Source of the DNA: a virus
Taxonomy: Duplodnaviria > Caudoviricetes
IMG/VR virus record: IMGVR_UViG_3300025310_000006
Coordinates: 1-60,660 of that record
Direction: 5' to 3' (one strand)
Length of the DNA: 60,660 nt
Made by a program: the position numbers and the translations under genes. Shown here one piece after another: positions 4,601 to 29,828 of this stretch (positions are counted from its first letter, which is position 1; each line of letters begins with the position of its first letter). The notes under the pieces were generated by a model. It was not told the DNA's origin. It saw nothing but the letters and a program-made list of their open reading frames with translations, and made no database searches.

Positions 4601-4644
4601 GCCTCTATTGTAGAGGCTGGCTATAAAAGCCAATACTTATATTT

Positions 4645-5967: not shown

Positions 5968-6190
5968 CGTCTTCCTTTTTTTCTTTGGTTGCTTTAGCGG
6001 CTATTTCATCAAGAGCGTTGATAGCCGAAGAATCAACTTTTACGACTGGAGGAATACCACGGATACACCAAATAGTATTGTTGTATGATTCCTTGATAGC
6101 TGTAATCGCATGTGCAGTCAGTCCAGTCAATAAAAGCAGAACGAAGAAGGATAGCCACGGGTTGGCAGCCATAAAAGTGAGAAGTTCCAT
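5939..6190 (-). CDS. Small membrane protein
   Basis: N-terminal hydrophobic helix (WLSFFVLLLLTGL). Confidence 0.6.
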   Translation of the reverse strand: MELLTFMAANPWLSFFVLLLLTGLTAHAITAIKESYNNTIWCIRGIPPVVKVDSSAINALDEIAAKATKEKKEDDENQLKDCR

Positions 6191-6290
6191 ATTTTGGTCC
6201 CTTTGGGATTGAGTATACGGATAAAGGTAAGTTATACAATATGATAATCAAACCATATCGTCGTCGTCTAACACTACAATGAAATTATTA

Positions 6291-6761: not shown

Positions 6762-7567
6762 TTGAGCGGTATCCTGTAGTTATTAGTATTTATCCATTCC
6801 TGTGTTCGAGCCATTGACGATGGAATACCCATGTCGCTCCAATAGCCGTCTATAATGGTTGATGTCATTGACTGATTCTGAACATAGAATTCGTTGACAT
6901 CCGATACCTCTAACTCGCCTCTACCAGATGGTTTCAGCCCACGAATAATGCTGAACACATGCGGAGTGTAAAGATACAATCCAGTGACAGCGTAGTTGCT
7001 TTCGGGGTTCTTCGGCTTCTCCACAATACCAGTTACGATTCCGTCTTTCAATGAAGCTACTCCGAATCTTTCAGGATCGCCAACTGGCTTGAGGAATATG
7101 TGGGCGAAGGAATCGGTTCCTTCATTTAGCCTTTGCGAAACTGGACAATCAATAGCTTTTCTAAACTTATTTTCAAACTCTTTGAAAGCTTCCTTGAAGG
7201 AGTCTTGATAAAAGTTATCGCCAAGTATAACTGCAAAAGATTCATCGCCAACCCAGCCTTCTATAAGCTTCATGGCGGAAGCGATTCCAACTGGGCGGGA
7301 TGCATCGTTATGATCCTGAATCTTATATGTCAAGTCAACGCCAAAGCGATGTCCGTCACCAAGAAACTCTATGATGTCACCACAATGCTCTTGCGATGAT
7401 ATGATGAGTATTTCTTTGGAGCCTGACTGAATAAGCGTATTGAGCGGATACCAAATCATCGGTATGGCTCCTTGCAGTGTATACACCGGAAGCAAATGCT
7501 TATTTGTTACCTCGGTTTGAGGTAACATTCTCGTTCCCCGTCCACCACATAAGCATACCGATTTCAT
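6758..7567 (-). CDS. rmlA: Glucose-1-phosphate thymidylyltransferase (RmlA/RfbA family)
   Basis: GGRGTRM.P.T...NKHLLPVY, LGDG.RFG, LGDN, PERFGV, EKP, AVTGLY, KPSGRGELE, WSDMG. Confidence 0.92.
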   Translation of the reverse strand: MKSVCLCGGRGTRMLPQTEVTNKHLLPVYTLQGAIPMIWYPLNTLIQSGSKEILIISSQEHCGDIIEFLGDGHRFGVDLTYKIQDHNDASRPVGIASAMKLIEGWVGDESFAVILGDNFYQDSFKEAFKEFENKFRKAIDCPVSQRLNEGTDSFAHIFLKPVGDPERFGVASLKDGIVTGIVEKPKNPESNYAVTGLYLYTPHVFSIIRGLKPSGRGELEVSDVNEFYVQNQSMTSTIIDGYWSDMGIPSSMARTQEWINTNNYRIPLK

Positions 7568-8562: not shown

Positions 8563-8914
8563 GGTTCTCTTCTCTTATTCTAATTGGATCCGATGTAACT
8601 ATATTTATGGTTCTTGAGGGATCATAGCCCGCGCCAAGGAATTGTATGGCGCAATGTATTATCCATGTGGTTGCCGAATAAAATGCTCCGTTGAGTGGAT
8701 TCCACCAAGGGAAAGGACCATACGCCAATCCAAGCCCCAAGCCTATCCAGAAGCCTATACACATTGGACATGTGATAAGCTTATAGAAGAAGTCGGTGTT
8801 CAACTCTAGCCAATCGCGCAGCCATTGAAATATAGAGCCTTTACCAAGTATGTTGGCTATTCCAAAGGCTGCTACGATTGCTATGAGAGTTTCCATTATC
8901 CGACTCTTCTCCAA
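8552..8914 (-). CDS. DUF1360-like membrane protein
   Basis: SIFQWLR...LITCPMCIGFWIG (CPxCxxFW) plus transmembrane segments. Confidence 0.7.
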   Translation of the reverse strand: MEKSRIMETLIAIVAAFGIANILGKGSIFQWLRDWLELNTDFFYKLITCPMCIGFWIGLGLGLAYGPFPWWNPLNGAFYSATTWIIHCAIQFLGAGYDPSRTINIVTSDPIRIREENHEY

Positions 8915-10752
8915 CTGTTCGCTACTGAATAAAATTGCAGTAAAATTGGTATCGGATGATTACCAGCGGTTGTCACCATGAGCGGAACCACGTAAAATGG
9001 ATTACCTAATATAGAATACCCATTACCATCGACTACATATCCACTTGTGAGAGATGTGGCTTCAACATATACAAATAACATTTGCCCATTATAAGGTGCC
9101 GATGGTAAATAAATGGTTAAATTATTTACAGAGACGCCACACACTAATGTAACAGTTGATATGTCATTAGGAATGTTGTAAGTCGAGGTAACTGCTGATA
9201 CCGATCCATATACAGTGTTTCTGATGCTGAATCTGTCACAAGACAAAGCTCCCAATGCTCTTACATAACCGGTGTCAAACTCACCATATATAAGGGCTTG
9301 ATCACTGGTACCATCATCATTGGCTATATACAGCTTATTAGATCCAGTCTCGCTATAACCGGCTTTGAATCCTATAGCCACATTGTTTGATCCGACATTA
9401 TTGTAAAGAGCCTGTGAACCGACAGCAGTATTATTATCACCATCTAAGCTTACAAACAGAGAGGCATATCCAACCGCTACATTGTTATCTCCACTGACAC
9501 ACTGATTCATTGCTGAATATCCTGCGCCAGTGTTGAAGTTTCCTATCTTATTGTTTCTTACCGAGTTTCCACCAACTCCAGTGTTGAAGTTTCCGGTAGT
9601 ATTTTCATACATGCATGTTATTCCAACCGCTGTATTACCATTACCATCTATATTGTTGTATAGTGAATAAGCTCCGATACCAGTATTTTCAACACCATTA
9701 TCGTTATTGTAAAGTCCGTAGTAACCAACAGAGACATTTAAACTACCACCGATATTGAAACGCATTGCATTTCTACCGACAGCGACATTATTATATCCAG
9801 TGGTGTTGCTATATAAAGCTGCTCTACCAACCGCAACATTTTCATATCCAGATACATTTTCATTGAGGGCGTTTACACCGACTGCCGTATTACTGGAACC
9901 GTCAATGTTATTGGTGAGTGCGTTTACTCCAATAGCAATATTATCGTCACCGGATATGTTTTGTGTGAGAGCGTTTAATCCGACAGCGACATTGTTATTT
10001 CCTATAGTATTATATTTCAACGCAAAATTTCCGAGGGAAATGTTATTATTTCCAATCTCGTTGCTATAAAGCGAGTCATATCCAATAGCAACATTTGAAT
10101 GACCTGTTGTAGTGGAAGCCAAAGTGTTTACACCGACTGCTGTATTTCTGTAGCCAGTTGTAACAGAAGTCAAAGAATTCTTACCGAACGCTTCGTTGTT
10201 TTGAGTGCTGTAGCTATCTCCCTTTGGACTTGTCAATTCACCAGTTACTATTTCGCTTCCATAAACTTGGACGGTGTGCCCATCATCATCCTTACTTTCA
10301 ACAGTATTACCAAACAAAACATGTCCACCCTTTCTCCAAGAAACATGGGTTACTTGTGAAGCATTATCAAACAATCTCATCTGGTTTAGACCGTTATCAA
10401 CACCTGAAATAGAATATACATCCATCTGCCAGTCAGCCAATTCAGGATTGGAGTTAGCCATGTTACCACTCAAAGCGGAAATCTCATCAACATCGAATCT
10501 GAATACGAGGTTGTTTCCATCTATGATAGTATCTGTTAGAACATGCTGTCCTATTATAAGGCATTGTCCTGATATCTGAACATCGGCAGCATACACATCG
10601 TTTATTTGAAAGTCTGCTAAACAACCAGTATCGTCAATTATGTAAACTCGGTTGTTCTTGAGGCTGTACATGGCGAGATGATCAGCAGTTGCAACCGGAT
10701 AGCTTGTTTCTCTTCTACGAATCTCATGTGCAAATTCTTTGAATCCTGCCAT
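8896..10752 (-). CDS. Tail fibre/adhesin-like protein with 14-aa N(T/V)AVG repeats
   Basis: About 20 tandem copies of GxxN(T/V)A(V/I)GxxAL, a trimeric beta-roll head-type repeat. Confidence 0.75.
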   Translation of the reverse strand: MAGFKEFAHEIRRRETSYPVATADHLAMYSLKNNRVYIIDDTGCLADFQINDVYAADVQISGQCLIIGQHVLTDTIIDGNNLVFRFDVDEISALSGNMANSNPELADWQMDVYSISGVDNGLNQMRLFDNASQVTHVSWRKGGHVLFGNTVESKDDDGHTVQVYGSEIVTGELTSPKGDSYSTQNNEAFGKNSLTSVTTGYRNTAVGVNTLASTTTGHSNVAIGYDSLYSNEIGNNNISLGNFALKYNTIGNNNVAVGLNALTQNISGDDNIAIGVNALTNNIDGSSNTAVGVNALNENVSGYENVAVGRAALYSNTTGYNNVAVGRNAMRFNIGGSLNVSVGYYGLYNNDNGVENTGIGAYSLYNNIDGNGNTAVGITCMYENTTGNFNTGVGGNSVRNNKIGNFNTGAGYSAMNQCVSGDNNVAVGYASLFVSLDGDNNTAVGSQALYNNVGSNNVAIGFKAGYSETGSNKLYIANDDGTSDQALIYGEFDTGYVRALGALSCDRFSIRNTVYGSVSAVTSTYNIPNDISTVTLVCGVSVNNLTIYLPSAPYNGQMLFVYVEATSLTSGYVVDGNGYSILGNPFYVVPLMVTTAGNHPIPILLQFYSVANSWRRVG

Positions 10753-11204: not shown

Positions 11205-14200
11205 TTACCATGGTCTTCTGAAGACGAAGTTTTGTGTGTTGCCTATATCTTTGTTTCTAACGATGTTTAGACGCTCCCCACCGTTTGCGTTTACATCCTG
11301 GATAATGTGGTTAGGTCTAAATACATATCTTCCGTAAACCTTGACATTCAAATCATTTGTAAGATTAGGTATGTCTGTATTATTTAGATATGTTCCAGAT
11401 ATCTCCACAACGTTGATATATGTAATGGAGCTATCAACCTTTATATCCATGTTTTTCTGTATGTAGAGATTGTTGAGCTTCAGAGCGTCAAGGTATCCAG
11501 AACCTTGCCACCATGCGCTACCATAATCCCATATTCCTCCATTAAACTCAAGAGTGTCTATGGTTGGCGCTCTGTCGTATGTGTATGGATTAGTTATAGT
11601 GCAGTAACCAGTAACATCAGCATCCTTGACATACTTGACTTCCATGAATGCGCCCGGAGCGGAAACATAGGTGTAGTTGAAGTAGGAAGAGTATGTTCCT
11701 ATACCTACCCAATAGGTTCTTGTTTCAGGAAATATAAACTTTGATGTGGATTCTGTGTAGCTACCGTTATAGTAATCATCGTAATCCGATATCAAATGCT
11801 GGAAATTCTTATCGTCATATATTTGGATATATGAATCAACAGAACCAGATATAATAGCAGTTACAATAGCATCACCAGCAACAGCATCAACTTGATAGTA
11901 ACGAAATCCGTCTCCCTGTGGAGTATTTGCGCCAAGAGGGAATGATTCTACATATTCTCCAGTTATTACTTTTGGTATTGCCTTTGTCCAGATTCCTGTT
12001 GGCGAAACCTTACTTGCGTAAGGATATGCCTTCTCATGGAGAGGAACGCCAAACCCTATATGGTTATATGTTACGGGACTGCTTCCGTTGTTATATGCTG
12101 AGTTTTCACCATGTCTTAGTTTATACTCAACATTTCCACCGTATGCGAATGTTTGGAGGTTATTAGACGGAACCGTGTCAAAGAGTGTAAAACCATTCTG
12201 AATATCAGCACCGGAATTATATGAATATATTCTTGAATCCCCAGAAGCGTGAAGGTTCCACTTGTTGTTTCTTGCTCCGCTGTAGAAAGCGTCGAAACTT
12301 CCAGTCTGAATCGTGGAGTTATTCAATGTAAGATTATGTTGTGTGTTTGATTTGTTTTCTCCGATTACACTGAAGTTATAATCACCACAACCAAATGTAG
12401 AGTTTTCCAAAATAACATTTAGAGCACCGGATGTTGGTGATACTGATAAATAGTTTGGATTGATGTTCATACCATGACATGAAAAGCTACCAAGGAACGT
12501 GACTGTGAGATTATCTCTGTTGTTTCTTATGTAAACTGGACCATCGTTCATCTGTCCGTCAGGTATGGTGTATGCTGATGAACCCGTTATGGAGTTTATC
12601 ATCGTGTTGTTATAGGCATCCCTACCATATAAGAACAATCCACCCCTAAGCCCAAATCGCACCGTCTCTGCGGCTGGAAGTCCACCACTACGACCGAACC
12701 ATGAGCAGGTTCCAGATCCGTATATCCATGAGTTTCCAGTTATACTATTGGTTATAACCGGACTATCCGCCATGAATCCCATTGGATGAGTAGTTCTTAG
12801 ACTCTTGCCATTCATCTCCATCGAATTGAAATACAACTGAGAGTTACCACTACCGGAGCCAGTATGAGCAACTGTTAAGTTTCTGTTGAGGAATATAGGA
12901 GAGTTTACAGAAGAGAGAGCGAACTTTCCGTTTCCGTTTATTCCCATGGTATTACAGTCGAGGAAGATTGAATCCGCGCTTATTTGCTGCGTCAGTGTGC
13001 TTCCTGAGTTCGGAAACATATAGAAAGTAGATCCACCTGTTACTGTAAACGATGAAAATAGAATGCTGTCGTCGCCGGGATATCCGAATGTAAGAGAGGG
13101 AGTCTTCACACCATCAGTTGAAATAAATCTTATATTACCATACTTGAAACTTCCGGAAATATCTGGTATTGGAGATGAAGCAATTCTGAAGTCACAATTT
13201 ATAACATCTATATCATTTGGAATAATATTGTTAGAGAAGTAAGAGAATCTTCTATTTCCAAAGTCCGACGATAATATCCACTTATGTAATGGATATCCCG
13301 ATATAGGAGGCGGTGGTAATGAAATATAGGCATTTAGTCCATTGAAATCACAATTATTTGTTATTTCTATAGTGTCAACGCCTTCGTCCGGATATATTAT
13401 TCCATCAATCCAGAAGTGACCACCATTTGCACCACCAGTTCTTATTATCTTATTTGGAACTGGTGGATCACTTCTGAGACGAATACGGTATTTGTTAGGA
13501 ATATTATAATTTACACATAACATGGACTGTAAGAAACCAGAATCAGCATTTATTGTTAATTTTCCGGAAATATTTACATTTCCCATTTGAGCCATTCTAG
13601 CAACTGTTCTAACTCCGGTATTATATCCAGATATGTCAATTGGAGCGAACATTATGATACTGTCTCTAAAATTTGAACCACCAGATATATTAAGTGCGGA
13701 AAAATCAAATGACGCGTCGTTATAAATATGTATGTAGCCTGTATCAGGACTATCACCGCCGGATATTACGGCGTAGATATATCTATCGGCGTTATTACTG
13801 CCAAAATTGGGGCTGAAATTATACTTTCCACCGTAGACATATATGTTCTTAGCGTTCCAATGTTCTTTGAAATTGAACTGAGAATTAGAAGCCGTAAATG
13901 TGTGATTTACAGTTCCCCTACTTCCATCTTTATTGACATGGAAATCTTTTCCACTCCACTGAGTCGGAGCAAAGTTCCATGTAAGAGTTGCACCAGTTCC
14001 AACATCGACATAGAATGGATCTTCGAAGAACAATCTAGATGCAGAAGATACTGATATATCTCTTCCAACACGCAACCTTCCCCCAGGCTGAGGGAATACC
14101 AATGTTCCCATATTGGAAAGTAATGTTTCTTCACCAAATACGACAGCATTTGCTGTTATAGACTGAGTTCCGAATGACACATTAGAAGCAAAGTTGTATC

Positions 14201-15167
14201 CGCTTATACTATCAACATGAGTTGGTTGTGTGAATGTAGCTGGGCGAATACCTTGATCAAAGAGTCCTATAGAAGCATTTGCATGCCTCTTGACTGTATT
14301 ATCAGTCAATGGAATGTTGTAAATAGTCAACTCATCAACTCTACCATTGAAATAGCTACCATTTGAAATGAATCCAAGTGGGACTCTTGTTGTACCGGCT
14401 ACTGCTCCAACTCCACCGCTTGCGGGGGTTGCTAAAAGATTAGTAACGGACGCTGGAATATCTGAGAGATTGGTTTGCTGCTTTGCAACATCTCCATTTA
14501 CAAAGAGCTTGTGAACTGCGCCTTGTCCATCATAGACGGTGGAAACATAATATGTTGAACCAGTTATAATATCTTCATCGGTGTGTATGTAAGAATACTT
14601 GGAAGTGTTTCCGTCCCAAATTCCGCTGCATAGCTTTCCACCACTTATATACATTGAAAAACCAGAGAAGAAGTCACCCTGCTCGTAAAGGTAATTCTTT
14701 CCAGAGTAGTTCAAGCTATCAGCGTTGAACATCATCTCTATAGTTTTTGCTCTAAACTCACCATAATTTATCAGATTGTTATTTGGTACGAGTATTCTTC
14801 CAGTTGTTCCATTCAACTTGACACTTGTTCCGTTATTGAAACCACCTGAGATAAGTGCGGGTTGACTATAGGTTATTCCACTGGTACTGTAGTTTCCATT
14901 AGCATCGGGACCAGCCGAACCGAAGTTTGTGCAGATTGTTCCACCTGTTTCATTGAATCTATACCACAAGACAGGAGCATCGAGACTGATAACATCTTCG
15001 AATATACCGGAAGGAGAGAATGTATCCGATGGTGTGAATACAAGACTGTCATCCGGTAACAAAGATGAACCAGTTGCCGCTTCAGTACCACTCTGAGAAG
15101 TAGTATAGTTACTTCTCTCATTGGCGTTCTGATTGTTATTTAAGTTTCTCCAATAAATGATTGGCAT
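11205..15167 (-). CDS. Large virion adhesin/tail protein with an N-terminal LamG/ConA-like domain
   Basis: PVLWYRFNETGG...KLFVNG...FNGRVDELTIYNIPLT (LamG-like). Beta-rich S/G/N body and a PPC-like segment (VDSYIQIYD...YWVGI). Confidence 0.75.
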   Translation of the reverse strand: MPIIYWRNLNNNQNANERSNYTTSQSGTEAATGSSLLPDDSLVFTPSDTFSPSGIFEDVISLDAPVLWYRFNETGGTICTNFGSAGPDANGNYSTSGITYSQPALISGGFNNGTSVKLNGTTGRILVPNNNLINYGEFRAKTIEMMFNADSLNYSGKNYLYEQGDFFSGFSMYISGGKLCSGIWDGNTSKYSYIHTDEDIITGSTYYVSTVYDGQGAVHKLFVNGDVAKQQTNLSDIPASVTNLLATPASGGVGAVAGTTRVPLGFISNGSYFNGRVDELTIYNIPLTDNTVKRHANASIGLFDQGIRPATFTQPTHVDSISGYNFASNVSFGTQSITANAVVFGEETLLSNMGTLVFPQPGGRLRVGRDISVSSASRLFFEDPFYVDVGTGATLTWNFAPTQWSGKDFHVNKDGSRGTVNHTFTASNSQFNFKEHWNAKNIYVYGGKYNFSPNFGSNNADRYIYAVISGGDSPDTGYIHIYNDASFDFSALNISGGSNFRDSIIMFAPIDISGYNTGVRTVARMAQMGNVNISGKLTINADSGFLQSMLCVNYNIPNKYRIRLRSDPPVPNKIIRTGGANGGHFWIDGIIYPDEGVDTIEITNNCDFNGLNAYISLPPPPISGYPLHKWILSSDFGNRRFSYFSNNIIPNDIDVINCDFRIASSPIPDISGSFKYGNIRFISTDGVKTPSLTFGYPGDDSILFSSFTVTGGSTFYMFPNSGSTLTQQISADSIFLDCNTMGINGNGKFALSSVNSPIFLNRNLTVAHTGSGSGNSQLYFNSMEMNGKSLRTTHPMGFMADSPVITNSITGNSWIYGSGTCSWFGRSGGLPAAETVRFGLRGGLFLYGRDAYNNTMINSITGSSAYTIPDGQMNDGPVYIRNNRDNLTVTFLGSFSCHGMNINPNYLSVSPTSGALNVILENSTFGCGDYNFSVIGENKSNTQHNLTLNNSTIQTGSFDAFYSGARNNKWNLHASGDSRIYSYNSGADIQNGFTLFDTVPSNNLQTFAYGGNVEYKLRHGENSAYNNGSSPVTYNHIGFGVPLHEKAYPYASKVSPTGIWTKAIPKVITGEYVESFPLGANTPQGDGFRYYQVDAVAGDAIVTAIISGSVDSYIQIYDDKNFQHLISDYDDYYNGSYTESTSKFIFPETRTYWVGIGTYSSYFNYTYVSAPGAFMEVKYVKDADVTGYCTITNPYTYDRAPTIDTLEFNGGIWDYGSAWWQGSGYLDALKLNNLYIQKNMDIKVDSSITYINVVEISGTYLNNTDIPNLTNDLNVKVYGRYVFRPNHIIQDVNANGGERLNIVRNKDIGNTQNFVFRRPW

Positions 15168-16693: not shown

Positions 16694-17653
16694 TCAGTTT
16701 ATTGCTATCAACTCACATGATAGGAGAGCGGATAAATCCTTTCCTCCAGCATATGATATACTCGAACGCAAATCTTCCTGTAGCTCGACAAGCAGATTGC
16801 TCATATCACCCTTGTAGTCTTGGAACAGCTTCTTACCCTCGACATGGGTATACTTGCCCTTATTATGCTCAGAAGCGGAGCCGTAGTATATACTCTTCTT
16901 ATGTCCGTCAATTTCTATTATTTCACCACCGCTCTGATCGTATCCATTGAAGAGACTTCCAGCCATAACCATAGTAGCCCCACATGCAATGGCTTTGGCT
17001 ATATCACCATGCTCACGAACGCCACCATCGGCTATAACAGGCTTCTTTGCAGCCGCTACACACTCTTGGAGGCAGGATATGGTTGGGCGGGTAAAGCCCG
17101 TCTTGAGCTTCGTAGTGCAGGCTAATCCAGGTCCAATGAAGAGCTTGCAGCAGTCAGCGCCCCACGATTCAATTTCTTCGACAGCTTCGGCTACAGCCAT
17201 GTTTCCAACGATGAGGAACGAGTCGGGAAGTTTGTCCTTGATATACTTTATCATCTTCTCAGCCTTTGGTGCCCAGGCTGAAGCTATATCAAGTGTTATG
17301 TAGTCGGGCTTGAGTCTGGAGGCTACAATCGAATCAATCTGCTTGTAGGATTCGTCGTTGACTCCCATGCTTATTGATGTGAAGTATCCGTATGACTCCA
17401 TATCCAAAATAAACTTGACGGGATCGACACCGAAACGATGCATGACGTAGAACCAGCCCTTAGAAGCCAAGAACTTACAAGTGTCAACACTAACTACGGA
17501 CTTCATATTAGCTGGACACACAGGCATCTTGAAGCGTCTACGCCCGAATTCTACAGAGGTATCACATTGACTTCGACTTCCAACTACCGCCTTCTTTCTT
17601 GAAAGAAGGAAGACATCTCCGTAGTTATATTCTCTGCGTGGTTGCATATCCAA
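16694..17653 (-). CDS. guaC: GMP reductase (GuaC type; probable start 17647)
   Basis: PANMKSV, YVMHRF, YITLDIA, IGPGLACTTKLKTGF, IADGGVREHGDIAKAI, YYGSASEHNKG, VEGKK, SSISYAGG. Confidence 0.93.
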   Translation of the reverse strand: MDMQPRREYNYGDVFLLSRKKAVVGSRSQCDTSVEFGRRRFKMPVCPANMKSVVSVDTCKFLASKGWFYVMHRFGVDPVKFILDMESYGYFTSISMGVNDESYKQIDSIVASRLKPDYITLDIASAWAPKAEKMIKYIKDKLPDSFLIVGNMAVAEAVEEIESWGADCCKLFIGPGLACTTKLKTGFTRPTISCLQECVAAAKKPVIADGGVREHGDIAKAIACGATMVMAGSLFNGYDQSGGEIIEIDGHKKSIYYGSASEHNKGKYTHVEGKKLFQDYKGDMSNLLVELQEDLRSSISYAGGKDLSALLSCELIAIN

Positions 17654-20276: not shown

Positions 20277-20840
20277 TCACAGAAGTATTATTATAAGCAG
20301 TACTTGAAGTATACCAATAATTAGCCCAAGATAGAATCCCATGTTTATTATGGATTTCATCTCCTTCTTAGCCACATCATTTACCATCTTCTCAAGCTTT
20401 ATCACATCAAAGTTTTCAATCTTCTCCCTAACCATATTATAAATGAAGTCGTTTGTCGAGGCTTTCATTTCAGAATCATCGGCAAGCCCATCTTTCAGAG
20501 TTTCAGAAACCATCTCTGTTAGAAACTCACCTATGATGCCTCCAATAAAAGATTTCTTATTACCAAGCATTGAATTGACTGTATTACCTATGACACCATT
20601 CAATCCACTAGAGCCACCTATCTTATCCTTTATGGAGTCAAAATTGACTAGCTCTTTAGATACTACTTCTGCTATCTTATGAGCCAACTCCTTTTGCTTC
20701 TTAGGTATCAACCCCTGAAATCCTAGAATTGGTTTCCTGGGATAGAAAAGCATCTTGACAGCCAGCCAGTTAGTAGCCCAGCTATGAAAAGCAGCTACAA
20801 GAGCGATAGAGGCGTACTTGAGATAGAGAATGTCTATCAT
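20277..20840 (-). CDS. DUF445 (YheB-like) membrane protein
   Basis: TNWLAVKMLFYP...QGLIPKKQKELA...V..EL and C-terminal EMKSIINMGFYLGLIIGILQ. Confidence 0.85.
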   Translation of the reverse strand: MIDILYLKYASIALVAAFHSWATNWLAVKMLFYPRKPILGFQGLIPKKQKELAHKIAEVVSKELVNFDSIKDKIGGSSGLNGVIGNTVNSMLGNKKSFIGGIIGEFLTEMVSETLKDGLADDSEMKASTNDFIYNMVREKIENFDVIKLEKMVNDVAKKEMKSIINMGFYLGLIIGILQVLLIIILL

Positions 20841-21322
20841 ATAGTCATCTGCTCTCTGATAGTATTCCTATGAAGGTTGGTTGAGTTTATGTCTTCAATG
20901 ATTTGCTTATACAGATACTCTTCGAATGTATTGAGCAAGTCTTCAAAGTCTTTTATGTAAGCCGTGGCACGGATGCGTGTCTCTGAAGACTTAGACTTGG
21001 TGAGTATCAATAGACTCTCAACGAATCTCACAAAGGCTCCATCCATGAAGATGAAGTTGTTTATTGGCTTGTCATCTTTCTTGTTGTCTTGCATAGCAGC
21101 CGAAATAACCATCTTATATCTTTCGATAATGAAAAACCATCTTTCAACTGTTGGCTTATGCTCCCCCGGTATTGGACATCCTATAAATATCTCTACAGAT
21201 GCTATGTCTTTGAATCTGGTATCGTCATGCACTTTCTGTGCATCGCTGCTGAAGGCAGTCTTGAAAGCGTCTTCAAGATAACCCGACCATCTTACAAGGG
21301 GATTGCGCTCTTCAGTCGTCAT
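20837..21322 (-). CDS. Hypothetical protein
   Basis: 161-aa ORF translationally coupled on both sides. Confidence 0.7.
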   Translation of the reverse strand: MTTEERNPLVRWSGYLEDAFKTAFSSDAQKVHDDTRFKDIASVEIFIGCPIPGEHKPTVERWFFIIERYKMVISAAMQDNKKDDKPINNFIFMDGAFVRFVESLLILTKSKSSETRIRATAYIKDFEDLLNTFEEYLYKQIIEDINSTNLHRNTIREQMTI

Positions 21323-21845
21323 GCTTCTTTTCCTTCAGCGTATCAATATATGTCTTCATAGCAAGATAGCGAGCATCGCTTTTATTGCTCAACGGCAAGT
21401 TAGCATGTTCTATATCGGCTGAAGTCTCCAGTATCATGATACGAAGCTGTCTAAGCTGTTCTTTCTGCTCTTCCAACTTTATCTTGGCTACATTGTAGTC
21501 TTCTTCTATCTTGCTCTTTGTAGCATCGAGGAATTTTATGTCTTCCTCTTTTATACCATTCCTCGAAAGTCTTTCCTTTTCGACATCACACTCAACCATC
21601 ATGGCTTTGTATGAAGATATGACTTTTATAAGTTTCTCTACAGAGCGTTCTGTCTTCACCTTTTCAAATTCTAATTCAGCCTTTGAGTTTGATGTCCCGA
21701 TATACTTCTTGCTACGCAAAAACTTCTCTCTAACCCAAAATAAACCATCGTCTATTTTCTCCTTGTTATTCTTGTATAGCTTCTGTGGTATACCAAGAAC
21801 GACACCAGCCAAACCCAAAAGTGTAACGGATATGAGGGTGAACAT
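21312..21845 (-). CDS. TM plus coiled-coil protein (PspA-like architecture)
   Basis: Hydrophobic N-terminus and long E/K-rich heptads. Confidence 0.6.
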   Translation of the reverse strand: MFTLISVTLLGLAGVVLGIPQKLYKNNKEKIDDGLFWVREKFLRSKKYIGTSNSKAELEFEKVKTERSVEKLIKVISSYKAMMVECDVEKERLSRNGIKEEDIKFLDATKSKIEEDYNVAKIKLEEQKEQLRQLRIMILETSADIEHANLPLSNKSDARYLAMKTYIDTLKEKKHDD

Positions 21846-22513
21846 TACTTTCCTTTTTGCTCCTTGAACTTACGATACTTTTCCTTCATCTCAAATCTCT
21901 TGACGATGTTATCGTTGACGGAGTATTCGCTATGTCCAGTGTAACGGGATATGACTTCATTTGTCATGGTGCCGTATCCCATAACGGCAACCTTATCCAA
22001 TCTTTTTTGCGATTCTTCTATTTCGTTCTTGTGCTTGAAGACAACTTGGGCTATCTGAGCTTGAGCCAGTCTTTCCTTTAGAACAGTTTTCTCATACGCC
22101 TTCAAAGATTCTTCACGGCTCTTTATGAGGGCTTCCTTCTGAGATATACCCTGAAGGGTTACATCTCTCTGTGTCTTCTTGACACCGAATTCATGCTTAT
22201 AAGAATCTCTCTCATCCTGTGACAAGTCAGCATCATCTTTAGCGAATTCAAGAAACTCAATTTCTTCTTCAAGCCTCTTGAGTAGAGACTTGTCAACCGC
22301 AAGCTCGGCTTTATCGTTTCTGAGGGATTCCTTCTCAGCCTCATACTCAAGCTTTATATTTTCTTCAGCGTTTCCAAGTATCATACCCTGTCCAAACTTG
22401 GTGCGCATGAAACGCTTCTTCACAACACCGACAACGGCTCTAGCGGGGGCAGTATTTCGAGCAAACCAAGCAGCCAAAGCACCGCCTCCAACTATCAATG
22501 ACTCAAATAACAT
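21845..22513 (-). CDS. Coiled-coil protein with hydrophobic N-terminus (PspA/IM30-like architecture)
   Basis: 222 aa; N-terminal hydrophobic/amphipathic helix, long coiled coil, and KERLAQAQI resembling a PspA-type segment. Confidence 0.55.
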   Translation of the reverse strand: MLFESLIVGGGALAAWFARNTAPARAVVGVVKKRFMRTKFGQGMILGNAEENIKLEYEAEKESLRNDKAELAVDKSLLKRLEEEIEFLEFAKDDADLSQDERDSYKHEFGVKKTQRDVTLQGISQKEALIKSREESLKAYEKTVLKERLAQAQIAQVVFKHKNEIEESQKRLDKVAVMGYGTMTNEVISRYTGHSEYSVNDNIVKRFEMKEKYRKFKEQKGK

Positions 22514-23240
22514 TGTGTATCTCCTTGTCTATGTCTTTGCTGTATGTATCTATAATAGTTTGCAATTCCATGTCAGACATATCTTTTATATTATAGCATG
22601 AATGATATGAATTACTTTTACTTATTTTCTCACCGTCAATCTTTATATTCTTGAAATTTGTAACTGTATAGTTAGAATTCAAGGAATTGAGAATAAGTAT
22701 TTGCATTTTACTCATTTCTCTATATTCACCACTATCAATATTCCATTCATCTCCCCTAAGTATATGAGAATGATTCCAGAATGCGTCTTCTACAAGGAAT
22801 AGAGGCATATGTGAATAAAATGAATTTCCAAAAAGCTTATCTATAGCGTCTTTCTTGTCCGACAAACGATATACATCATCGACATCCAATCCGGTTCTCA
22901 TAATCTGCTCAACCGTTTTACGCATAAATTCATCGGTTAGAGATTTGGGTCTTGTTATCTCGTAAAGTCCCTTTCCGGGTAAATGAGCGGTTGAATCCGC
23001 CTCCCATCTCGGATCCTTCTTCGGATAGTCATTGAATGTTGAGGCAAACTTTACATAGGAATCATCAAATCGTATATGAAACTTGGTTTTATTCTTCTTA
23101 GCATAGGCATGTGAATAAACTAAACCATACAGGTGTCCAATATGCATCTCACCCACAGGATTCACCGATATGGCGAATCTGGTTCTATTATGTTCAAACA
23201 ATATAGTCATGCTTCTTTCTTTGGTAATATGTTTGTCCAC
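22503..23240 (-). CDS. Minimal glutamyl-tRNA synthetase-like (class Ib) catalytic domain with no anticodon-binding domain
   Basis: RFAISVNPVGEMHIGH (HIGH), KFHIRFDD, VEDAFWNHSHILRGDEW, GEKISKS (KMSKS). Only about 240 aa. Confidence 0.75.
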   Translation of the reverse strand: MDKHITKERSMTILFEHNRTRFAISVNPVGEMHIGHLYGLVYSHAYAKKNKTKFHIRFDDSYVKFASTFNDYPKKDPRWEADSTAHLPGKGLYEITRPKSLTDEFMRKTVEQIMRTGLDVDDVYRLSDKKDAIDKLFGNSFYSHMPLFLVEDAFWNHSHILRGDEWNIDSGEYREMSKMQILILNSLNSNYTVTNFKNIKIDGEKISKSNSYHSCYNIKDMSDMELQTIIDTYSKDIDKEIHNVI

Positions 23241-24178
23241 ATTTTAGATATCATTTCCTCAGACACCAACCAATCAAGTCCGTTGAATCTTTCAATATAC
23301 TGACGATCATTGCGAAACTTTGTTACCACATCGGCTAAGAAAGAATACTGCTTATAACATATAGCATTGAAGAAGCTAGGAGTCTTGGAGTTTTTTATGA
23401 ACCAACCAATGGAATCTTTGAAGAATACTATGTCATTGAATATGGAGTAGTGTTCGACTGTTATAACATGGCTCTTCATGGATGCACCACGGTGTAAGAG
23501 TCTTCCGTCAAAGTCAATACTCAGGACATTGGTTGGATTAAGAACTGCCCAATGGGCAAAGTTTCCCAAGCCGCTGTCTACCTTGTGAACTCCATCTTTT
23601 GCTTTAGCGTCCATCTCTTCATCAACCAGTCTTCCACCTGTGAAGGTTTCTTTATCTTTTATATTATAGATGTAGTTGCATAGGAATAGATTCATGAGGA
23701 ATAGGTGGTTGTTTCCACTGTAGAAATCATAAGAGGTTTCAGCATCACCGTCAACGCGCTTTTTCCAAGCATTCACTACCATGTAAGCAGATGGATTACT
23801 GTCCATTGTAGTAAGCATATCATCTAATATGTTACTCTCAACGAAGCAGTCCGTATGGAGATAGAAAGCTTTATAAGTGGTATTATCCAAAAGCTTTCCG
23901 AATACATATGCCTGCTGGGATGCTTCGTCTGGTTCTTTACTTCCAATGACATACAAATCAAACTTATCACTAACCATTTCCGCGAGTGATGTAAAAAATT
24001 CATCTTCTTTGAAGTCGTATTTTAGAACATCGTTTACCGATACTATGACACATTGTATATTGTTGTTGTTCTTGTATAGGTTATGAATACATCTTAGTAA
24101 AAATAGCTGAGTACCCTCAACATAATTTATTAGAACGGCGTTGTCATAACCTTTTTTCAGTATAAGATCAGTTTGCAT
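23207..24178 (-). CDS. Putative GT-A-fold glycosyltransferase-like protein
   Basis: AVLINY...LLRCIHNLY...CVIVSVND and KAFYLHTDCFV (the HxD/DxD position of GT2-like enzymes), with a late LLHRG. Confidence 0.5.
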   Translation of the reverse strand: MQTDLILKKGYDNAVLINYVEGTQLFLLRCIHNLYKNNNNIQCVIVSVNDVLKYDFKEDEFFTSLAEMVSDKFDLYVIGSKEPDEASQQAYVFGKLLDNTTYKAFYLHTDCFVESNILDDMLTTMDSNPSAYMVVNAWKKRVDGDAETSYDFYSGNNHLFLMNLFLCNYIYNIKDKETFTGGRLVDEEMDAKAKDGVHKVDSGLGNFAHWAVLNPTNVLSIDFDGRLLHRGASMKSHVITVEHYSIFNDIVFFKDSIGWFIKNSKTPSFFNAICYKQYSFLADVVTKFRNDRQYIERFNGLDWLVSEEMISKMWTNILPKKEA

Positions 24179-25094
24179 GTTTCACCATTCCTTTTATTAT
24201 ATCAATTTCTTCTTTTAGTTGCTTCCATGTTGGGTGGCGATTATTCATGAAATGATGTTCATCGGAAACCAGTCCGTCATATCCACGGTTTAGTAGTTTT
24301 CTCCCATTCTTATTGAGAATACCAACCGCACCTTCTGTTCCACCTAAAACCGGAATGCCGTATTTCTTCATACCTATAAACCAGTTATCAGTATCGTACA
24401 TAGCATTCATAGATATCAAGCCAACCTTATATCTTTCAACCATTTTCTCAATATAAGGTATCATTCCCCTATTGGCTATATCGAAAGTATCGTTTCTTCT
24501 AAATGTTATTGGTAATAGGCATTTGTTCGGAACGCTTTCAAGTATATGATTGAATCGTTTAAGATAGTTTCCGATTATGAAAGGTTTGGCGATTTTCCAA
24601 GACTCCTTATCTTTATCATTTTTGAAGTCAATATATTTGTTTATTGATATGTTATTATCTTTCAACAACGATTGACTATGCTCATCACAAAAAGGAGATG
24701 GGTGCATAACCGAGTCAACCATACATGTTTCATGGTGTATCATGAGATACCAGGGCATATCCGTCACAACCCATTTATCTATCAATGTATTAGCTGCAAT
24801 TTCTTCAGCCGCTTTCTTAGCCCACTCATCAGCAGCTTGAAAATTGTTTTGTTTCAAAGCAATTCCACTTGCACTTACGAATGGTGATATTGGCTTTTCC
24901 TTCCTCAATACACTTGGAAGTAAAGATATGATAGTGAAACCTTTATCTTTAGCCTTGTTTATAAATTCTATGTCAACTGATTCCCATATTGATATGGTGT
25001 CTATACCAAGAAACTTCAGCTTTTCTAAAAAGTCATCAGACTTTTCTTTATAGTATTCCTTGGATAGTTTCTTCCAGATGTGAACACATAGCAT
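24168..25094 (-). CDS. Hypothetical protein, possibly a TIM-barrel glycoside-hydrolase-like fold
   Basis: LEKLKFLGIDTISIW...FINKAKDKGFTII alternating beta/alpha pattern. Family assignment is weak. Confidence 0.5.
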   Translation of the reverse strand: MLCVHIWKKLSKEYYKEKSDDFLEKLKFLGIDTISIWESVDIEFINKAKDKGFTIISLLPSVLRKEKPISPFVSASGIALKQNNFQAADEWAKKAAEEIAANTLIDKWVVTDMPWYLMIHHETCMVDSVMHPSPFCDEHSQSLLKDNNISINKYIDFKNDKDKESWKIAKPFIIGNYLKRFNHILESVPNKCLLPITFRRNDTFDIANRGMIPYIEKMVERYKVGLISMNAMYDTDNWFIGMKKYGIPVLGGTEGAVGILNKNGRKLLNRGYDGLVSDEHHFMNNRHPTWKQLKEEIDIIKGMVKHAN

Positions 25095-25097
25095 ATA

Positions 25098-27110
25098 TCA
25101 GCATGGTCCTGGCGTCGATGACCAAGTAGAGATGCCCGAATTGCATCCACTCTCAGTCCAACAGGTATTATAAACGGAATTGTATATTGAGTATGGAGTT
25201 CCAGATTGTGGTCCTATACAGTTCAATCCGGTGCCAGATGGAGCGCCCCACCCAATATTGGAAGCTCCCGCAACAAAGAACAATGCTCCGTCAACCGGAT
25301 CACATGGGTTTGGACCCGGATCAGAGCTACTGGAGCTTGAGCTTGAGCTAGATGAGCTAGAGGATGAGCTTGAGCTAGAGCTAGATGAGCTAGAAGAGCT
25401 AGAGGATGAGCTTGAGCTAGATGAGCTACTGGAGCTTGAGCTTGAGCTAGATGAGCTAGAGGATGAGCTTGAGCTAGAGCTAGATGAGCTACTGGAGCTT
25501 GAGCTTGAGCTAGATGAGCTAGAGGATGAGCTTGAGCTAGAGCTAGATGAGCTAGAAGAGCTAGAGGATGAGCTTGAGCTAGATGAGCTACTGGAGCTTG
25601 AGCTTGAGCTAGATGAGCTAGAGGATGAGCTTGAGCTAGAGCTAGATGAGCTACTGGAGCTTGAGCTTGAGCTAGATGAGCTACTGGAGCTAGAGGATGA
25701 GCTTGAGCTAGATGAGCTACTGGAGCTTGAGCTTGAGCTTGAGCTTGAGCTAGATGAGCTACTGGAGCTAGAAGAACTTGATGATGGGAAGCAGCATATA
25801 CAACAATCGTCAAGATTATCGAATACTATGTTTCCAGAAGTGTTTACATATATGTCGAAACACTTTCCAGGCTCAATATTTTTTATGAAATGAGTATAGA
25901 GAGCTTTTCCGTATACCTTATTGTAGTAATTTGTAGTTGTCCTCGAATACCATCCAATATCCTTGAAGTCTGGATGATCGACGAAGTAGCTTGTATTCTT
26001 ATAATAATCGTTATACAAAGCTCCACTTATCTCACCGACATAAGCGGCGCCGGATGTGTATTCACTCAAAACATCAGTTGGTAAGTGGACTTTCCATTTC
26101 TCGTCGCCAACTGGAATAATCTCAGTTTCCCATGTTAGGATGTTGTCGGGATTGTAGATGTCAAGTGGATCCCTGATATTGTCGATCGGAAACTTCCACG
26201 CTATCAGTTTGATATCTTCGGTATACTCAGCCTTTATCTCTTTACCTTCTTTGACATCATCCGGAATACTGGCTTGAGGATAGTAAAGGTTTCCATCTAT
26301 AGAGTGGCTTCGAACATTACAATTCTTGTATGTTCCGTCCAAGTTTCTATCAATTCTCGTTGACAGGTTGTATGAGAACCAAATGGTTCCGAAAGACCAT
26401 GTATAACGCTCGCCCAAATCCCAGGTTTGCTTTGTGTCGTTTAGATATCCTACACCTACATTGTTTCCAATGTTGTAGTTGTTGAACTTTCCGTTATACC
26501 ATGTATCAATCTTCAAGTCCTCGGAGTGAAGAACTGGAACCCCGTTCCCGGCAGTCTTCATCATAAGGTTCAATCCGTTTATCGTAACAAACTTATCGTC
26601 AAGATAATCTTGATCTACGAATACGATTTGATATTTGCTATTTGTATCGTTTGGTAGTTTTGGCGGATTTGGACCATACGGAACTCTTTCCGCTATTGGA
26701 GATTTAGTCTTGAATCCTGAAGCTTCTCTACGCTTGGTTACAATGTTTGCAAAAAGAAATACCTTAGCACAATCTTTTATCTCTTCAGGATAAAAGTCCT
26801 TATTATCAAATATGTAAGGATTCGAATATATGAACTCTTGTGTTGGATTGCCTGGATTACCAAGAAATAGGGGAATGATAACCCCCGTAGCCATCGTTGG
26901 ATGGTCGGATACAGGGAGTGGGCTAAGAGTCGCTTCATCAATTCCAGAAGCTATTACAGGAGTGTCACTGGTATTGGCTATAGCGTTTTTAAACTCTAGC
27001 TCTTTTTCAGGATACGGAGAAGTAGTACGAATGGGAACGCTGTTCGCTCCATTCTTACCGAAGTTGCCTACTATTACCGGCTTTCGAGATCCTCTACTTC
27101 TCAGTGACAT
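25098..27110 (-). CDS. Poly-serine protein (154 consecutive Ser) with Cys-rich flanks, probably a virion appendage
   Basis: 670-aa ORF with GAGGA RBS. DDCCICCFP precedes the tract and a Cys-containing domain of about 75 aa follows it. Confidence 0.8.
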   Translation of the reverse strand: MSLRSRGSRKPVIVGNFGKNGANSVPIRTTSPYPEKELEFKNAIANTSDTPVIASGIDEATLSPLPVSDHPTMATGVIIPLFLGNPGNPTQEFIYSNPYIFDNKDFYPEEIKDCAKVFLFANIVTKRREASGFKTKSPIAERVPYGPNPPKLPNDTNSKYQIVFVDQDYLDDKFVTINGLNLMMKTAGNGVPVLHSEDLKIDTWYNGKFNNYNIGNNVGVGYLNDTKQTWDLGERYTWSFGTIWFSYNLSTRIDRNLDGTYKNCNVRSHSIDGNLYYPQASIPDDVKEGKEIKAEYTEDIKLIAWKFPIDNIRDPLDIYNPDNILTWETEIIPVGDEKWKVHLPTDVLSEYTSGAAYVGEISGALYNDYYKNTSYFVDHPDFKDIGWYSRTTTNYYNKVYGKALYTHFIKNIEPGKCFDIYVNTSGNIVFDNLDDCCICCFPSSSSSSSSSSSSSSSSSSSSSSSSSSSSSSSSSSSSSSSSSSSSSSSSSSSSSSSSSSSSSSSSSSSSSSSSSSSSSSSSSSSSSSSSSSSSSSSSSSSSSSSSSSSSSSSSSSSSSSSSSSSSSSSSSSSSSSSSSSSSSSSSSSSSSSSSSSDPGPNPCDPVDGALFFVAGASNIGWGAPSGTGLNCIGPQSGTPYSIYNSVYNTCWTESGCNSGISTWSSTPGPC
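25323..25784 (-). repeat. 462-bp mixed-codon serine tract (AGC/TCA/TCT/TCC/AGT) with higher-order repeats
   Basis: The plus strand is built from GAGCT(T/A) hexamers. Blocks such as GATGAGCTACTGGAGCTTGAGCTTGAGCTA recur. Confidence 0.95.
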
Positions 27111-27517: not shown

Positions 27518-28678
27518 TTATAGTCCACCGCCCAAGTCCATCTCTTCTCCACCAGCATCGCCGCCTTCAGCACCGGCATCTGCTCCAGCATCTCCTTCAG
27601 TCCCAGCGTCACCGCCTTCATCTCCACCTTCATCTCCCACATCACCGTCAGCGCCAGCTTCATCTTCAAAAGCGGCTTCTATATCCGTGATGACAGGATA
27701 AACAGATATTCTGGACGAGCCTTCTCCCTGCTTGCCAGTGTAATCGTTTATGAACGTGCGGAACAATGGACTCTTCTTATATTCTTGAGATTTGATATTG
27801 TCCTTGATAAACTTATCAATTGACGGAGGTATGTCAGCATATAGCTTATTAAATGCTATAACGCCACGCTCGCCTTGTGGTTGGAAGTATGATATTGGTA
27901 TCAAATTTGGACGAATCTTCTTCTCTTCTGAGAAGTTTATCTTGACTCCGAGAAGGAATTTGATAGCCTTCTTATTATCTACCCAATCCTCGCCAAAGGA
28001 CTTATTCATAAACTTCTCTATCTTTTCTATAGCACTTGCTAAATCCTTCTTATGAGATATAACTCTTGGAACACCATTTTCATCGTTATAGAATATAGGT
28101 ATATTTGAGTTATAGATGATTACTCGACGCTCACGCTCTGCTATCTGAGGGAATTCCTTACGAAGCTCCTTATTCTTCTGCATGTAAAGTTGATACTGAT
28201 CTGGAGTCAATCTGGACTCTAATTCGTCCGCTCTAACGCCAACTCTCTTTTCATCGTCGGACATAAGCGACATTGGATCAATGCCTGCATACTTGAACTT
28301 GAAGCGAGCGAGACGAATGTTAGCATCTGAGGTTAGTGCATAGTCAACTTTTGGATCACCAGAGTCAGTGAATAGCTCCTGTATCTTGGCTTGATCGGAC
28401 TGCGTTGCTCCAGCGCCCTCTGCGCCCGTTTCCTGCCCTTCTGGCGGGGTTTCTTCCCCGGCGGTGTCTCCACCCCCATCACCGCCCGTTTCGCCCGCCA
28501 TGCTCTCTGCGGCAGCATCTACATCGTCTTGGCTAAACAAGTCTTCCCCACCGGCAGCTTCGGCATCTCCACCAGCATCGGCTTCAGCGTCATCAGCACC
28601 TTCATCTTCAGGAGCTTCAGTAAGAAGTCCGAGACGGTACTTGAGGCTAGTTTCAATATACTTAGTTATTTCATCCAT
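27518..28678 (-). CDS. Acidic late protein, candidate internal head protein
   Basis: TATAAATA at 28709-28716; LLTE-A putative gp21 site; D/E/G-rich ends. Confidence 0.65.
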   Translation of the reverse strand: MDEITKYIETSLKYRLGLLTEAPEDEGADDAEADAGGDAEAAGGEDLFSQDDVDAAAESMAGETGGDGGGDTAGEETPPEGQETGAEGAGATQSDQAKIQELFTDSGDPKVDYALTSDANIRLARFKFKYAGIDPMSLMSDDEKRVGVRADELESRLTPDQYQLYMQKNKELRKEFPQIAERERRVIIYNSNIPIFYNDENGVPRVISHKKDLASAIEKIEKFMNKSFGEDWVDNKKAIKFLLGVKINFSEEKKIRPNLIPISYFQPQGERGVIAFNKLYADIPPSIDKFIKDNIKSQEYKKSPLFRTFINDYTGKQGEGSSRISVYPVITDIEAAFEDEAGADGDVGDEGGDEGGDAGTEGDAGADAGAEGGDAGGEEMDLGGGL

Positions 28679-28723
28679 ATTGCTTTCCCAAGATAAAGGT
28701 TTCCCCTTTATTTATAAGAAAGC

Positions 28724-29369: not shown

Positions 29370-29828
29370 TTATCTCCTTGGGTTCACACGGAAGTAATAA
29401 ACAGCGACATCGGTGCAGTCCATGGTTCCACCCGGAGCGCCGGATGTTCCGGATGTTCCGGAAGTTCCCGAAGTGCCAGGATCGCCCGACGCTCCTGTTG
29501 TAGCTGGTGACGAACAATCATCAACTGAAGTTGTCATGGTAATCTCCGTGCGGAAGACTCCCGTTCCACAATCGCAAGAAGTCTTATAGCGATATGAATA
29601 CCAGCCAACCTTGTCGGCTATTGGACACATAGCAGCATCAACCTGAAGCTCATTCTTCTCGTTGTATATCTTGATGTTAGTTGTGTCAGCCCAGCGGTAA
29701 TCGTTTACCTGGGATTGAACCGTCATATCTGTATAGGGACGATTGGAGGCTATAATAGTTGCTACATCCCCACAATAAAAATCTATTGGTGCTACGGCTG
29801 CCATATTATCCCTTTCTGAAAAAAACAT
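29370..29828 (-). CDS. Hypothetical structural protein with GTS repeats
   Basis: Ig-like beta pattern with an inserted GTSGTSGTSG stretch. Confidence 0.6.
   Translation of the reverse strand: MFFSERDNMAAVAPIDFYCGDVATIIASNRPYTDMTVQSQVNDYRWADTTNIKIYNEKNELQVDAAMCPIADKVGWYSYRYKTSCDCGTGVFRTEITMTTSVDDCSSPATTGASGDPGTSGTSGTSGTSGAPGGTMDCTDVAVYYFRVNPRR

Follow-up and report, generated by a model that had tools for sequence, protein, structure and literature searches.

A polyserine-stalk protein gene coupled to three enzyme genes in an uncultured T4-like myovirus: a candidate virion-modification module

Closest described systems

In the serine-rich repeat (SRR) adhesins of Gram-positive bacteria, which carry SRR dipeptide-type repeats, the Ser-rich substrate is encoded beside its glycosyltransferases (GTs), and the enzyme GlyE acts on the pneumococcal serine-rich repeat protein. 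Here, we describe a similar arrangement in a virus. The IMG/VR record IMGVR_UViG_3300025310_000006 was analyzed over its whole length (60,660 bases, linear, about 31% of the genome by CheckV; hereafter, the window), and it contains a gene for a 670-amino-acid (aa) protein with 154 consecutive Ser residues, followed by three genes for proteins of 308, 323, and 235 aa. These three resemble, in this order, TIM-barrel glycoside hydrolases (GHs), GT-A-fold enzymes of the GT8 type, and the catalytic core of glutamyl-tRNA synthetase (GluRS), with GlyE ranking high among the structures that match the 323-aa protein. Compared to the adhesin system, the phage tract is pure Ser, and no accessory Sec system was found among the window's open reading frames (ORFs) scanned.

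The closest mechanistic precedent for the aminoacyl step proposed below is MshC, a cysteine:GlcN-inositol ligase of mycothiol synthesis derived from cysteinyl-tRNA synthetase (CysRS), which joins an activated amino acid to a sugar that a GT of the same pathway has produced. It differs in its CysRS parent, its amide bond, its target (an amino sugar on a small molecule), and in being cellular, not viral. GluQ-RS (YadB) is, like the 235-aa phage protein, a GluRS catalytic-domain paralogue without the anticodon-binding domain, and it is reported to transfer activated Glu to a hydroxyl other than the tRNA 3' end (PMC3542578). The phage protein is shorter (235 aa, compared to 273 residues in the 1nzj chain of YadB), lacks most of the insertion domain and any conserved Cys, and is coupled to glyco-enzymes. 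By analogy, GluQ-RS, which modifies the queuosine side chain, and MshC, which modifies an amino sugar, may be seen as precedents for the proposed esterification.

In phages, virion-protein glycosylation by phage-encoded enzymes has been reported for mycobacteriophages Che8 and Rita (PMC11256854), whose GTs are proposed or shown to glycosylate their own structural proteins. The targets reported there are capsids of siphoviruses infecting actinobacteria, whereas here a T4-like myovirus has, as candidate target, the homopolymeric Ser stalk of a tail-associated protein. The enzymes also differ. What is new is the set: coupled to a Ser-stalk protein are a predicted GT-A protein that belongs to no sequence-level (Pfam) family, a TIM-barrel-like protein, and a GluRS-derived enzyme of 235 aa (hereafter, mini-GluRS). 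The best explanation of these four genes is a conserved late-gene unit (hereafter, the module) of a rare clade of uncultured T4-like myoviruses. We tentatively propose, at a likelihood somewhat short of even, that the late-expressed enzymes O-glycosylate the Ser stalk, after which the GluRS-like enzyme adds an acidic amino acid.

Layout and expression signals of the module

The following features were used (window coordinates; L002 is a 51.9-kb IMG/VR record and L001 a 10.4-kb metagenome contig).

25098–27110, minus strand: gene for the 670-aa Ser-stalk protein, a putative tail-associated fibre (ORF)
25785–27110, minus strand: N-terminal globular domain (aa 1–442), probable particle-attachment part (sequence comparison with L002 and L001)
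25323–25784, minus strand: uninterrupted 154-Ser tract (aa 443–596; sequence)
25101–25322, minus strand: C-terminal 74-aa tip with 5 Cys, putative receptor-binding knob, different in each lineage
24168–25094, minus strand: gene for the 308-aa protein, TIM-barrel glycoside hydrolase-like (ESM Atlas model)
23207–24178, minus strand: gene for the 323-aa protein with a predicted GT-A fold, GT8-like, with invariant H108-x-D110 and H229 (AlphaFold2 [AF2] and Foldseek, alignment)
22503–23210, minus strand: gene for the 235-aa minimal GluRS-derived putative adenylate-forming enzyme (PF00749, AF2 and Foldseek, motifs)
28709–28716, minus strand: T4 late-promoter-like motif TATAAATA, upstream of a 386-aa gene and the nearest such motif upstream of the module

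An initial annotation of this DNA had described four coupled minus-strand genes, the first encoding a 154-Ser protein; the four ORFs were confirmed, and the Ser run is exactly 154 residues long. Its account of the junctions (a 3-nt gap, then overlaps) also stands, except that the start of the synthetase-like gene had to be moved. The poly-Ser gene has a GAGGA Shine-Dalgarno-like sequence 6 nt ahead of its ATG and is separated from the 308-aa gene by the 3-nt gap, and the 308-aa and 323-aa genes overlap by 11 nt. For the synthetase-like gene, the ATG at 23210 is the most likely start; the product then has 235 aa, and the gene overlaps the GT gene by 4 nt (ATGA). The GTG at 23240 (245 aa) is a less likely start because the homologues are 230–247 aa long and begin at the equivalent Met. 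A simple terminator scan gave nothing convincing within the module. ORFs inside the Ser tract (25180–25893 and 25223–25813; plus and minus strand) were discarded as frame artefacts of the repeat.

The TATAAATA octamer occurs 13 times in the window (5.5 expected), with 11 of the 13 copies on the minus (coding) strand. One copy lies two genes before the fibre gene, and the motif recurs at the corresponding intergenic position of L002 (4236–4243); further downstream in the window, copies follow at 18454 and 16630. This distribution suggests that the module is co-transcribed late with the virion genes, with TATAAATA as the putative promoter motif.

The serine stalk and its conservation with the enzymes

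Five codons, drawn from the two Ser codon boxes, make up the Ser run (AGC 56, TCA 43, TCT 31, TCC 15, AGT 9), and its DNA forms higher-order repeats (TRF period 162, 2.7 copies, 93% matches), so that it cannot be read as a tract of trinucleotide slippage. That the run stays pure Ser although AGY and TCN codons are mixed in it suggests selection at the protein level over simple slippage. No other protein of the window has a strongly Ser/Thr-rich segment. Neither the 670-aa protein, including its N-terminal domain, nor the tips from three lineages matched any Pfam or PHROG family.

Gene order was compared in the window, L002, and L001, the lineages whose context was readable. The order Ser-rich protein, TIM-barrel protein, GT-A protein, mini-GluRS was found in all three. 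Loss of this neighborhood in relatives, named in the initial annotation as a result that would refute its reading, was not seen in these lineages. The enzymes of L002 and L001 are distant from those of the window (identities of 34–37% for the TIM-barrel protein, 34–36% for the GT, and 33–47% for the synthetase-like protein), and because the same gene set recurs in such distant relatives, the enzymes may decorate the serine stalk. Junctions between enzyme genes overlap in all three lineages, and the synthetase-like gene is coupled to the GT gene at all three loci. Most module junctions are overlaps of 4–23 nt, with the exceptions (3-nt gap in the window, 23-nt gap in L002) directly after the Ser-rich gene.

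The Ser-rich proteins themselves are far more variable. The L002 protein (805 aa) shares 63% identity over 444 aa with the N-terminal domain of the window protein and has two Ser runs (58 and 221 residues), followed by a tip unlike that of the window. The L001 protein (at least 1,130 aa, 42% Ser) shows no similarity to this domain; its S/T/D/Q-rich tracts flank an unrelated globular part with collagen-like triplets, and its tip is again Cys-rich (7 Cys). Because the L001 globular part is unrelated and yet the protein is 42% Ser with a Cys-rich tip, Ser-richness appears to travel with the enzymes, not with one fibre family. This persistence of Ser-rich character where the globular domain of the fibre has been replaced is the strongest point for a functional link.

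Further relatives are few. The record L007 is a repeat of L002 that ends after the TIM gene, and the three enzymes seem to occur together on a fourth, short contig, because P0009, P0006, and P0003 are each reported from a contig of 3,004 bp. In IMG/VR, single proteins or the first GT alignment matched nothing, and later scans found only L002 and its duplicate L007. Runs of several studies, labelled as metagenomes of sediment, hot springs, and freshwater, have contigs with near-identical DNA. One variant contig, 96% identical and from another study, covers the three enzyme genes; it differs by 105 substitutions and has no indel. When 40 substitution places (of 121 listed over four runs) were applied to the window, 35 codons changed (20 synonymous, 15 nonsynonymous).

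Directly after the synthetase-like gene, all three lineages have four small overlapping genes (window 20277–22513, minus strand; L001 6017–8099; L002 10690–12902). Several of their products have an N-terminal hydrophobic segment (by eye) and one contains DUF445; none of the four matched a PHROG family.

The GT-A-like protein

The initial annotation had guessed a GT-A fold for the 323-aa protein from its FYLHTD motif, and this guess survived comparison of two structure models. The AF2 model (5-sequence alignment) has a mean predicted local distance difference test score (pLDDT) of 68.8 and a predicted TM-score (pTM) of 0.74. Searched against the PDB with Foldseek, it gave 449 matches at E <= 0.001. 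GT-A enzymes make up almost all of the top matches, and a few nucleotidyltransferases appear further down. The best match is the GT8 structure 3tzt (E 9.4e-8), followed by chlorovirus hyaluronan synthase and, at rank 3, GlyE (5gvv, E 2.9e-7, identity only 12–14%); LARGE1, XXYLT1, UGGT, and glycogenin were also matched. TM-scores normalized by the query (TMq) are 0.36–0.45 for top matches including 3tzt, 5gvv, 7zvj, 4wnh, and 1ll0. Similarly, all 10 structural matches of an independent ESM Atlas model are GT8, GT2, or GT64 enzymes (TM 0.48–0.59). Taken together, the models predict a GT-A fold that is nearest to GT8 enzymes, and the search for a GT fold did not refute the modification idea.

GT8 enzymes are described as having DxD and C-terminal His motifs, and GlyE as a GT8 enzyme using UDP-Gal (PMC10709319). 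In the 323-aa protein, H108-x-D110 (the LHTD part of the FYLHTD motif) and H229 are invariant in all six family members and appear to be positioned as these two motifs; H229 borders a low-confidence segment of the AF2 model (231–248). By sequence, the protein matches no PHROG family and no PDB entry.

The TIM-barrel-like protein

The 308-aa protein had been annotated as a possible TIM barrel, in agreement with its ESM Atlas model (pLDDT 0.65), which resembles TIM-barrel GHs with TM-scores of 0.57–0.71 to GH14/42-, GHL10-, and DUF4015-type barrels. Over the whole comparison, TM by query ranges from 0.47–0.71, and every family score is below the bar for naming a family. The resemblance to GH-type TIM barrels is thus a model-based lead. 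Homologues share 34–78% identity, none of four family members matched Pfam (E <= 0.01), and no PDB profile match was found. Eight acidic residues are invariant in the family (E24, D41, D106, D112, E216, E254, D273, and E279).

The mini-GluRS

The description of the fourth protein as a stand-alone class Ib aminoacyl-tRNA synthetase core was borne out and narrowed to a GluRS-type class I core by three lines of comparison (PF00749, family profile, AF2 with Foldseek). PF00749 matches the 235-aa protein at E 1.3e-10 (41.2 bits, cut-off 23.4), covering only profile positions 3–43 of 314, i.e., the HIGH region. The AF2 model is confident (pLDDT 89.7), and its top 11 Foldseek matches in the PDB are all GluRS structures (E from 1.2e-5, TMq 0.47–0.57). 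The family profile matched 17 GluRS/GlnRS chains in the PDB at E <= 0.01, and in BFVD the neighbors of the model are GluRS and GlnRS proteins of giant viruses, all full-length and none miniature. On this sequence and model evidence, we regard the protein as a GluRS-type class I core.

Both signature motifs, HIGH and KISKS, are present. In the 9-sequence alignment, H-x-G-H and K-I-S-x-S are invariant (H23, G25, H26, K195, S197, and S199), as are R11, S15, D49, R152, and W156; the second Lys of KISKS is Ser in one member, the L001 protein. We take the latter five residues to correspond to the Glu-binding Arg5, Ser9, Glu41, Arg205, and Trp209 of T. thermophilus GluRS. Because these conserved Arg, Ser, Asp, Arg, and Trp residues match this glutamate-binding set, an acidic amino acid is the best guess for the substrate. 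Compared to four true GluRS proteins, the R-x-A-x-S, HIGH, R-x-D-D, P-x-Y/F..E-D, R-G-x-E/D-W, and KISKS blocks are kept, about 55–65 aa of the insertion domain are absent, the protein ends about 36 aa past KISKS without an anticodon-binding domain, and a 4-aa deletion lies in the PTYH..VVDD block, which adjoins the amino-acid pocket.

These features also bear on a role separate from the neighboring genes, in which the 235-aa enzyme, as a nucleic-acid modifier like GluQ-RS or as an anticodon-blind tRNA-charging core, would attach Glu to a tRNA nucleoside or to a phage or host tRNA. GluQ-RS offers a model, as a GluRS catalytic-domain paralogue that glutamylates queuosine of tRNA-Asp (PMC3542578), and YadB (1nzj) is among the structural matches. 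However, it appears only at rank 39, behind many GluRS structures, it is not one of the 17 profile matches, and the 235-aa protein is no closer to YadB than to GluRS. The insertion domain, which in GluRS holds the acceptor stem and in YadB a zinc site (Cys cluster), is largely absent from the family, and there is no invariant Cys in the 9-sequence alignment. The gene is translationally coupled to the GT at all three loci, and ARAGORN found no tRNA gene in the window, which represents about 31% of the genome. We therefore consider this tRNA-directed role improbable.

The family is tiny. An exhaustive HMMER search of 1.84 billion cluster representatives gave 11 matches at E <= 0.001, comprising six short proteins (230–247 aa), one RhoGAP-repeat protein, and four ordinary GluRS proteins (E about 4e-4 to 9e-4). 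Against 5.8 billion proteins, a word-indexed search returned very few non-self matches, two with the synthetase-like protein as query, three with the GT, and one with the TIM-barrel protein. Representative genomes of 185,579 prokaryote species yielded no family member, a weak absence given that this was a short-peptide-pattern scan, and a Sphingopyxis match restricted to 35 residues of the HIGH region was taken as that genome's own GluRS-type gene. Members of this tiny mini-GluRS family have so far been seen in phage-like contigs only, and the literature search found no description of a phage mini-GluRS (judged by titles). A resemblance of residues ~79–163 to RhoGAP (Pfam E 0.1; PDB 3byi E 0.0056; the 4-repeat protein P0015 at E 1.2e-8, where repeats add up) was put down to a helix-loop motif arising by chance, since the family members do not share the Arg of 'YRLS'.

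Proposed mechanism and its weighing

In the mechanism that we propose, the fibre would be made late and in the cytoplasm. The first gene would encode a tail-associated appendage, made up of an attachment domain at the N-terminus, a long stalk of pure or predominant Ser, and a variable small Cys-rich tip that probably binds a receptor. The GT-A (GT8-like) enzyme would transfer a sugar from a nucleotide sugar to the Ser stalk, or to a sugar already present on it, and the TIM-barrel enzyme would extend, trim, or remodel the glycan. The 235-aa enzyme would form the aminoacyl-AMP of an acidic amino acid (glutamate being the likeliest) and would then, with no tRNA anticodon being read, esterify this amino acid onto a glycan hydroxyl or possibly a Ser hydroxyl. 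The product would be a stiff, charged, mucin-like stalk, extended and protease-resistant, that holds the variable Cys-rich tip off the baseplate. We infer the modification of the Ser stalk, the substrates, and the reaction order. A more far-reaching claim is that a tRNA-independent GluRS-derived mini-ligase glutamylates glycan or Ser hydroxyls of a virion fibre, which would be a previously unknown kind of modification by the smallest known GluRS-type enzyme, yielding a charged mucin-like bottle-brush appendage; this we consider unlikely.

Several observations weigh against modification of the stalk by these enzymes. Ser O-glycosylation of bacterial serine-rich adhesins is initiated by GT-B enzymes (GtfA/GtfB), not by GT8 enzymes, and no such initiating pair was found among the window ORFs scanned. 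We know of no TIM-barrel hydrolase or synthetase paralogue in protein O-glycosylation. The GT model is moderately confident (94 of 323 residues with pLDDT < 50; Foldseek TMq 0.30–0.45), none of the six GT family members matches any Pfam family, including PF01501 and PF00535, even at E <= 10, the family profile found no GT among PDB sequences, and the first motif is HxD, not the canonical DxD. In the mini-GluRS, the variant contig (run X3, window position 22949) carries P88S, at a position that is invariant in the 9-sequence alignment. The conservation data are also limited, in that the most distant members (P0011–P0014) lie outside the three lineages counted, and gene order is kept beyond the module, both downstream (222-, 177-, 161-, and 187-aa genes in L001 and L002) and upstream (in L002). 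Because synteny extends on both sides, adjacency is weak and not independent evidence; the arrangement may reflect clade-wide synteny, of which the three lineages are not independent.

This synteny fits an alternative in which the Ser tract is an unmodified flexible tether and the three enzymes, neighbors by clade synteny, act on host envelope polysaccharide, a nucleotide sugar, or another small molecule, with the TIM-barrel protein perhaps a wall or capsule hydrolase linked to the downstream membrane proteins. The nearest Atlas models of this protein are indeed GHs, and the four co-conserved small proteins that follow include the DUF445 protein and those with hydrophobic N-termini. Polyserine can also serve as a plain spacer: Chi18B of Saccharophagus degradans is reported to have a linker of about 110 Ser residues (PMC3124978), and such spacers exist without an enzyme dedicated to them. 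These marine carbohydrases share with the phage protein long, near-pure Ser spacers between functional domains; they differ in being enzymes that are secreted or are lipoproteins and in having no adjacent trio of dedicated enzymes, whereas the phage tract belongs to a structural-region protein encoded with conserved enzymes. The literature search, judged by titles and the openings of abstracts, found no paper tying polyserine to phage tail fibres. Against a bare tether, the upstream gene is still Ser-rich in L001 despite its unrelated globular domain, the junctions with and within the enzyme trio are mostly tight, the three enzymes have no signal peptide or membrane segment (by eye), and the TIM-barrel protein matches no PHROG lysis family. 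We regard the tether as a serious but rather doubtful account of the locus.

Phage setting and neighboring genes

Based on its Pfam matches, the window belongs to a divergent T4-like myovirus. These include the Gp23 major capsid protein, T4 scaffold, prohead protease, the gp20 family (T4 portal with an intein), gp15, gp18 tail sheath, gp19-like tube proteins, a T4 baseplate protein, and the T4-type large terminase. Nearly all long ORFs are on the minus strand. Neither megablast (10 kb) nor tblastn (synthetase-like protein) matched the GenBank phage collection, indicating no near relative there. The module is flanked by tail genes on one side and further virion genes on the other. Upstream, these are tail/baseplate genes (PF12322 baseplate and gp19-like; PHROG tail tube, tail protein, baseplate wedge, and tape-measure-like families). 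The module had been placed directly downstream of this tail/baseplate block; the tail genes are upstream as described, but two genes of unassigned function (386 and 119 aa) intervene.

This setting bears on a further alternative, in which the three enzymes hypermodify phage DNA through glycosylation and aminoacylation of a hydroxymethyl base. T4-like phages modify their DNA, GT-A enzymes can glycosylate DNA (e.g., the base J glucosyltransferase), and the window, with its gp23, gp20, gp18, gp15, and gp19 families, also contains a thymidylate-synthase-family enzyme and nucleotide-metabolism genes. However, DNA modification is expected earlier in infection, whereas the genes lie amid virion genes behind a late-promoter-like motif. 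In addition, the thymidylate-synthase match (E 6.8e-106) appears to fit an ordinary ThyA better than a hydroxymethylase, and no DNA-binding domain was detected with Pfam or PHROGs. We judge DNA hypermodification very improbable and retain stalk modification as the preferred proposal.

An RmlA-type gene and a GT2-methyltransferase gene had been proposed as a sugar supply. Both exist, at 6758–7567 (about 15 kb downstream of the module) and 1009–2262, respectively. An NTP_transferase is also present in the L002 record, whereas the GT2 has no counterpart there. A supply role of the RmlA-type gene is weakly supported at best. The two genes are part of a metabolic cluster (1009–7567, minus strand) that comprises the GT2+methyltransferase fusion, thymidylate synthase, a metallophosphoesterase, a phosphoribosyltransferase, and the RmlA-type NTP_transferase.

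Other genes of the window were noted. The intervening 386-aa protein (27518–28678, minus strand) has acidic Gly/Asp/Glu/Ala-rich low-complexity ends, and a 152-aa protein (29370–29828, minus strand) has Gly-Thr-Ser triplet repeats; both are kept in L002 and are without a convincing family match. Downstream of the module are two large virion-type ORFs (8896–10752 and 11205–15167, minus strand): the 618-aa protein matches tail-spike and virion-structural PHROGs, and the 1,320-aa protein contains a Laminin_G_3 lectin-like domain. A gene of the IMPDH/GMP-reductase family (16694–17653, minus strand, E 5.3e-47) lies amid structural-region genes, with a 326-aa ORF of L002 (15879–16859) as its positional counterpart. 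The T4-type portal gene (56046–59078, minus strand, 1,010 aa) is intein-interrupted (Portal_T4, Intein_splicing, and a weak HNH_3 in Pfam; HNH-like segment). Three large ORFs amid structural genes (42567–44354, 45970–46881, and 50465–52282, minus strand) have HTH_17/Vsr-like, DUF2726/CapR, and CapR/REase_MTES_1575 domains, respectively, and are probably mobile homing-endonuclease-type insertions because they coincide with low-GC stretches (0.32–0.34).

Implications

If the proposed stalk modification is true, virion glycosylation would extend from actinobacteriophage capsids to the tail appendages of T4-like phages from samples of sediment, freshwater, and hot springs, and the module would be a compact, testable cassette of substrate and enzymes. 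It would also be a new non-translational use of an aminoacyl-tRNA-synthetase core, and its 235 aa may show the minimal GluRS for amino-acid activation. Even without the link to the fibre, the mini-GluRS defines a hitherto undescribed family of enzymes with two conserved partners.

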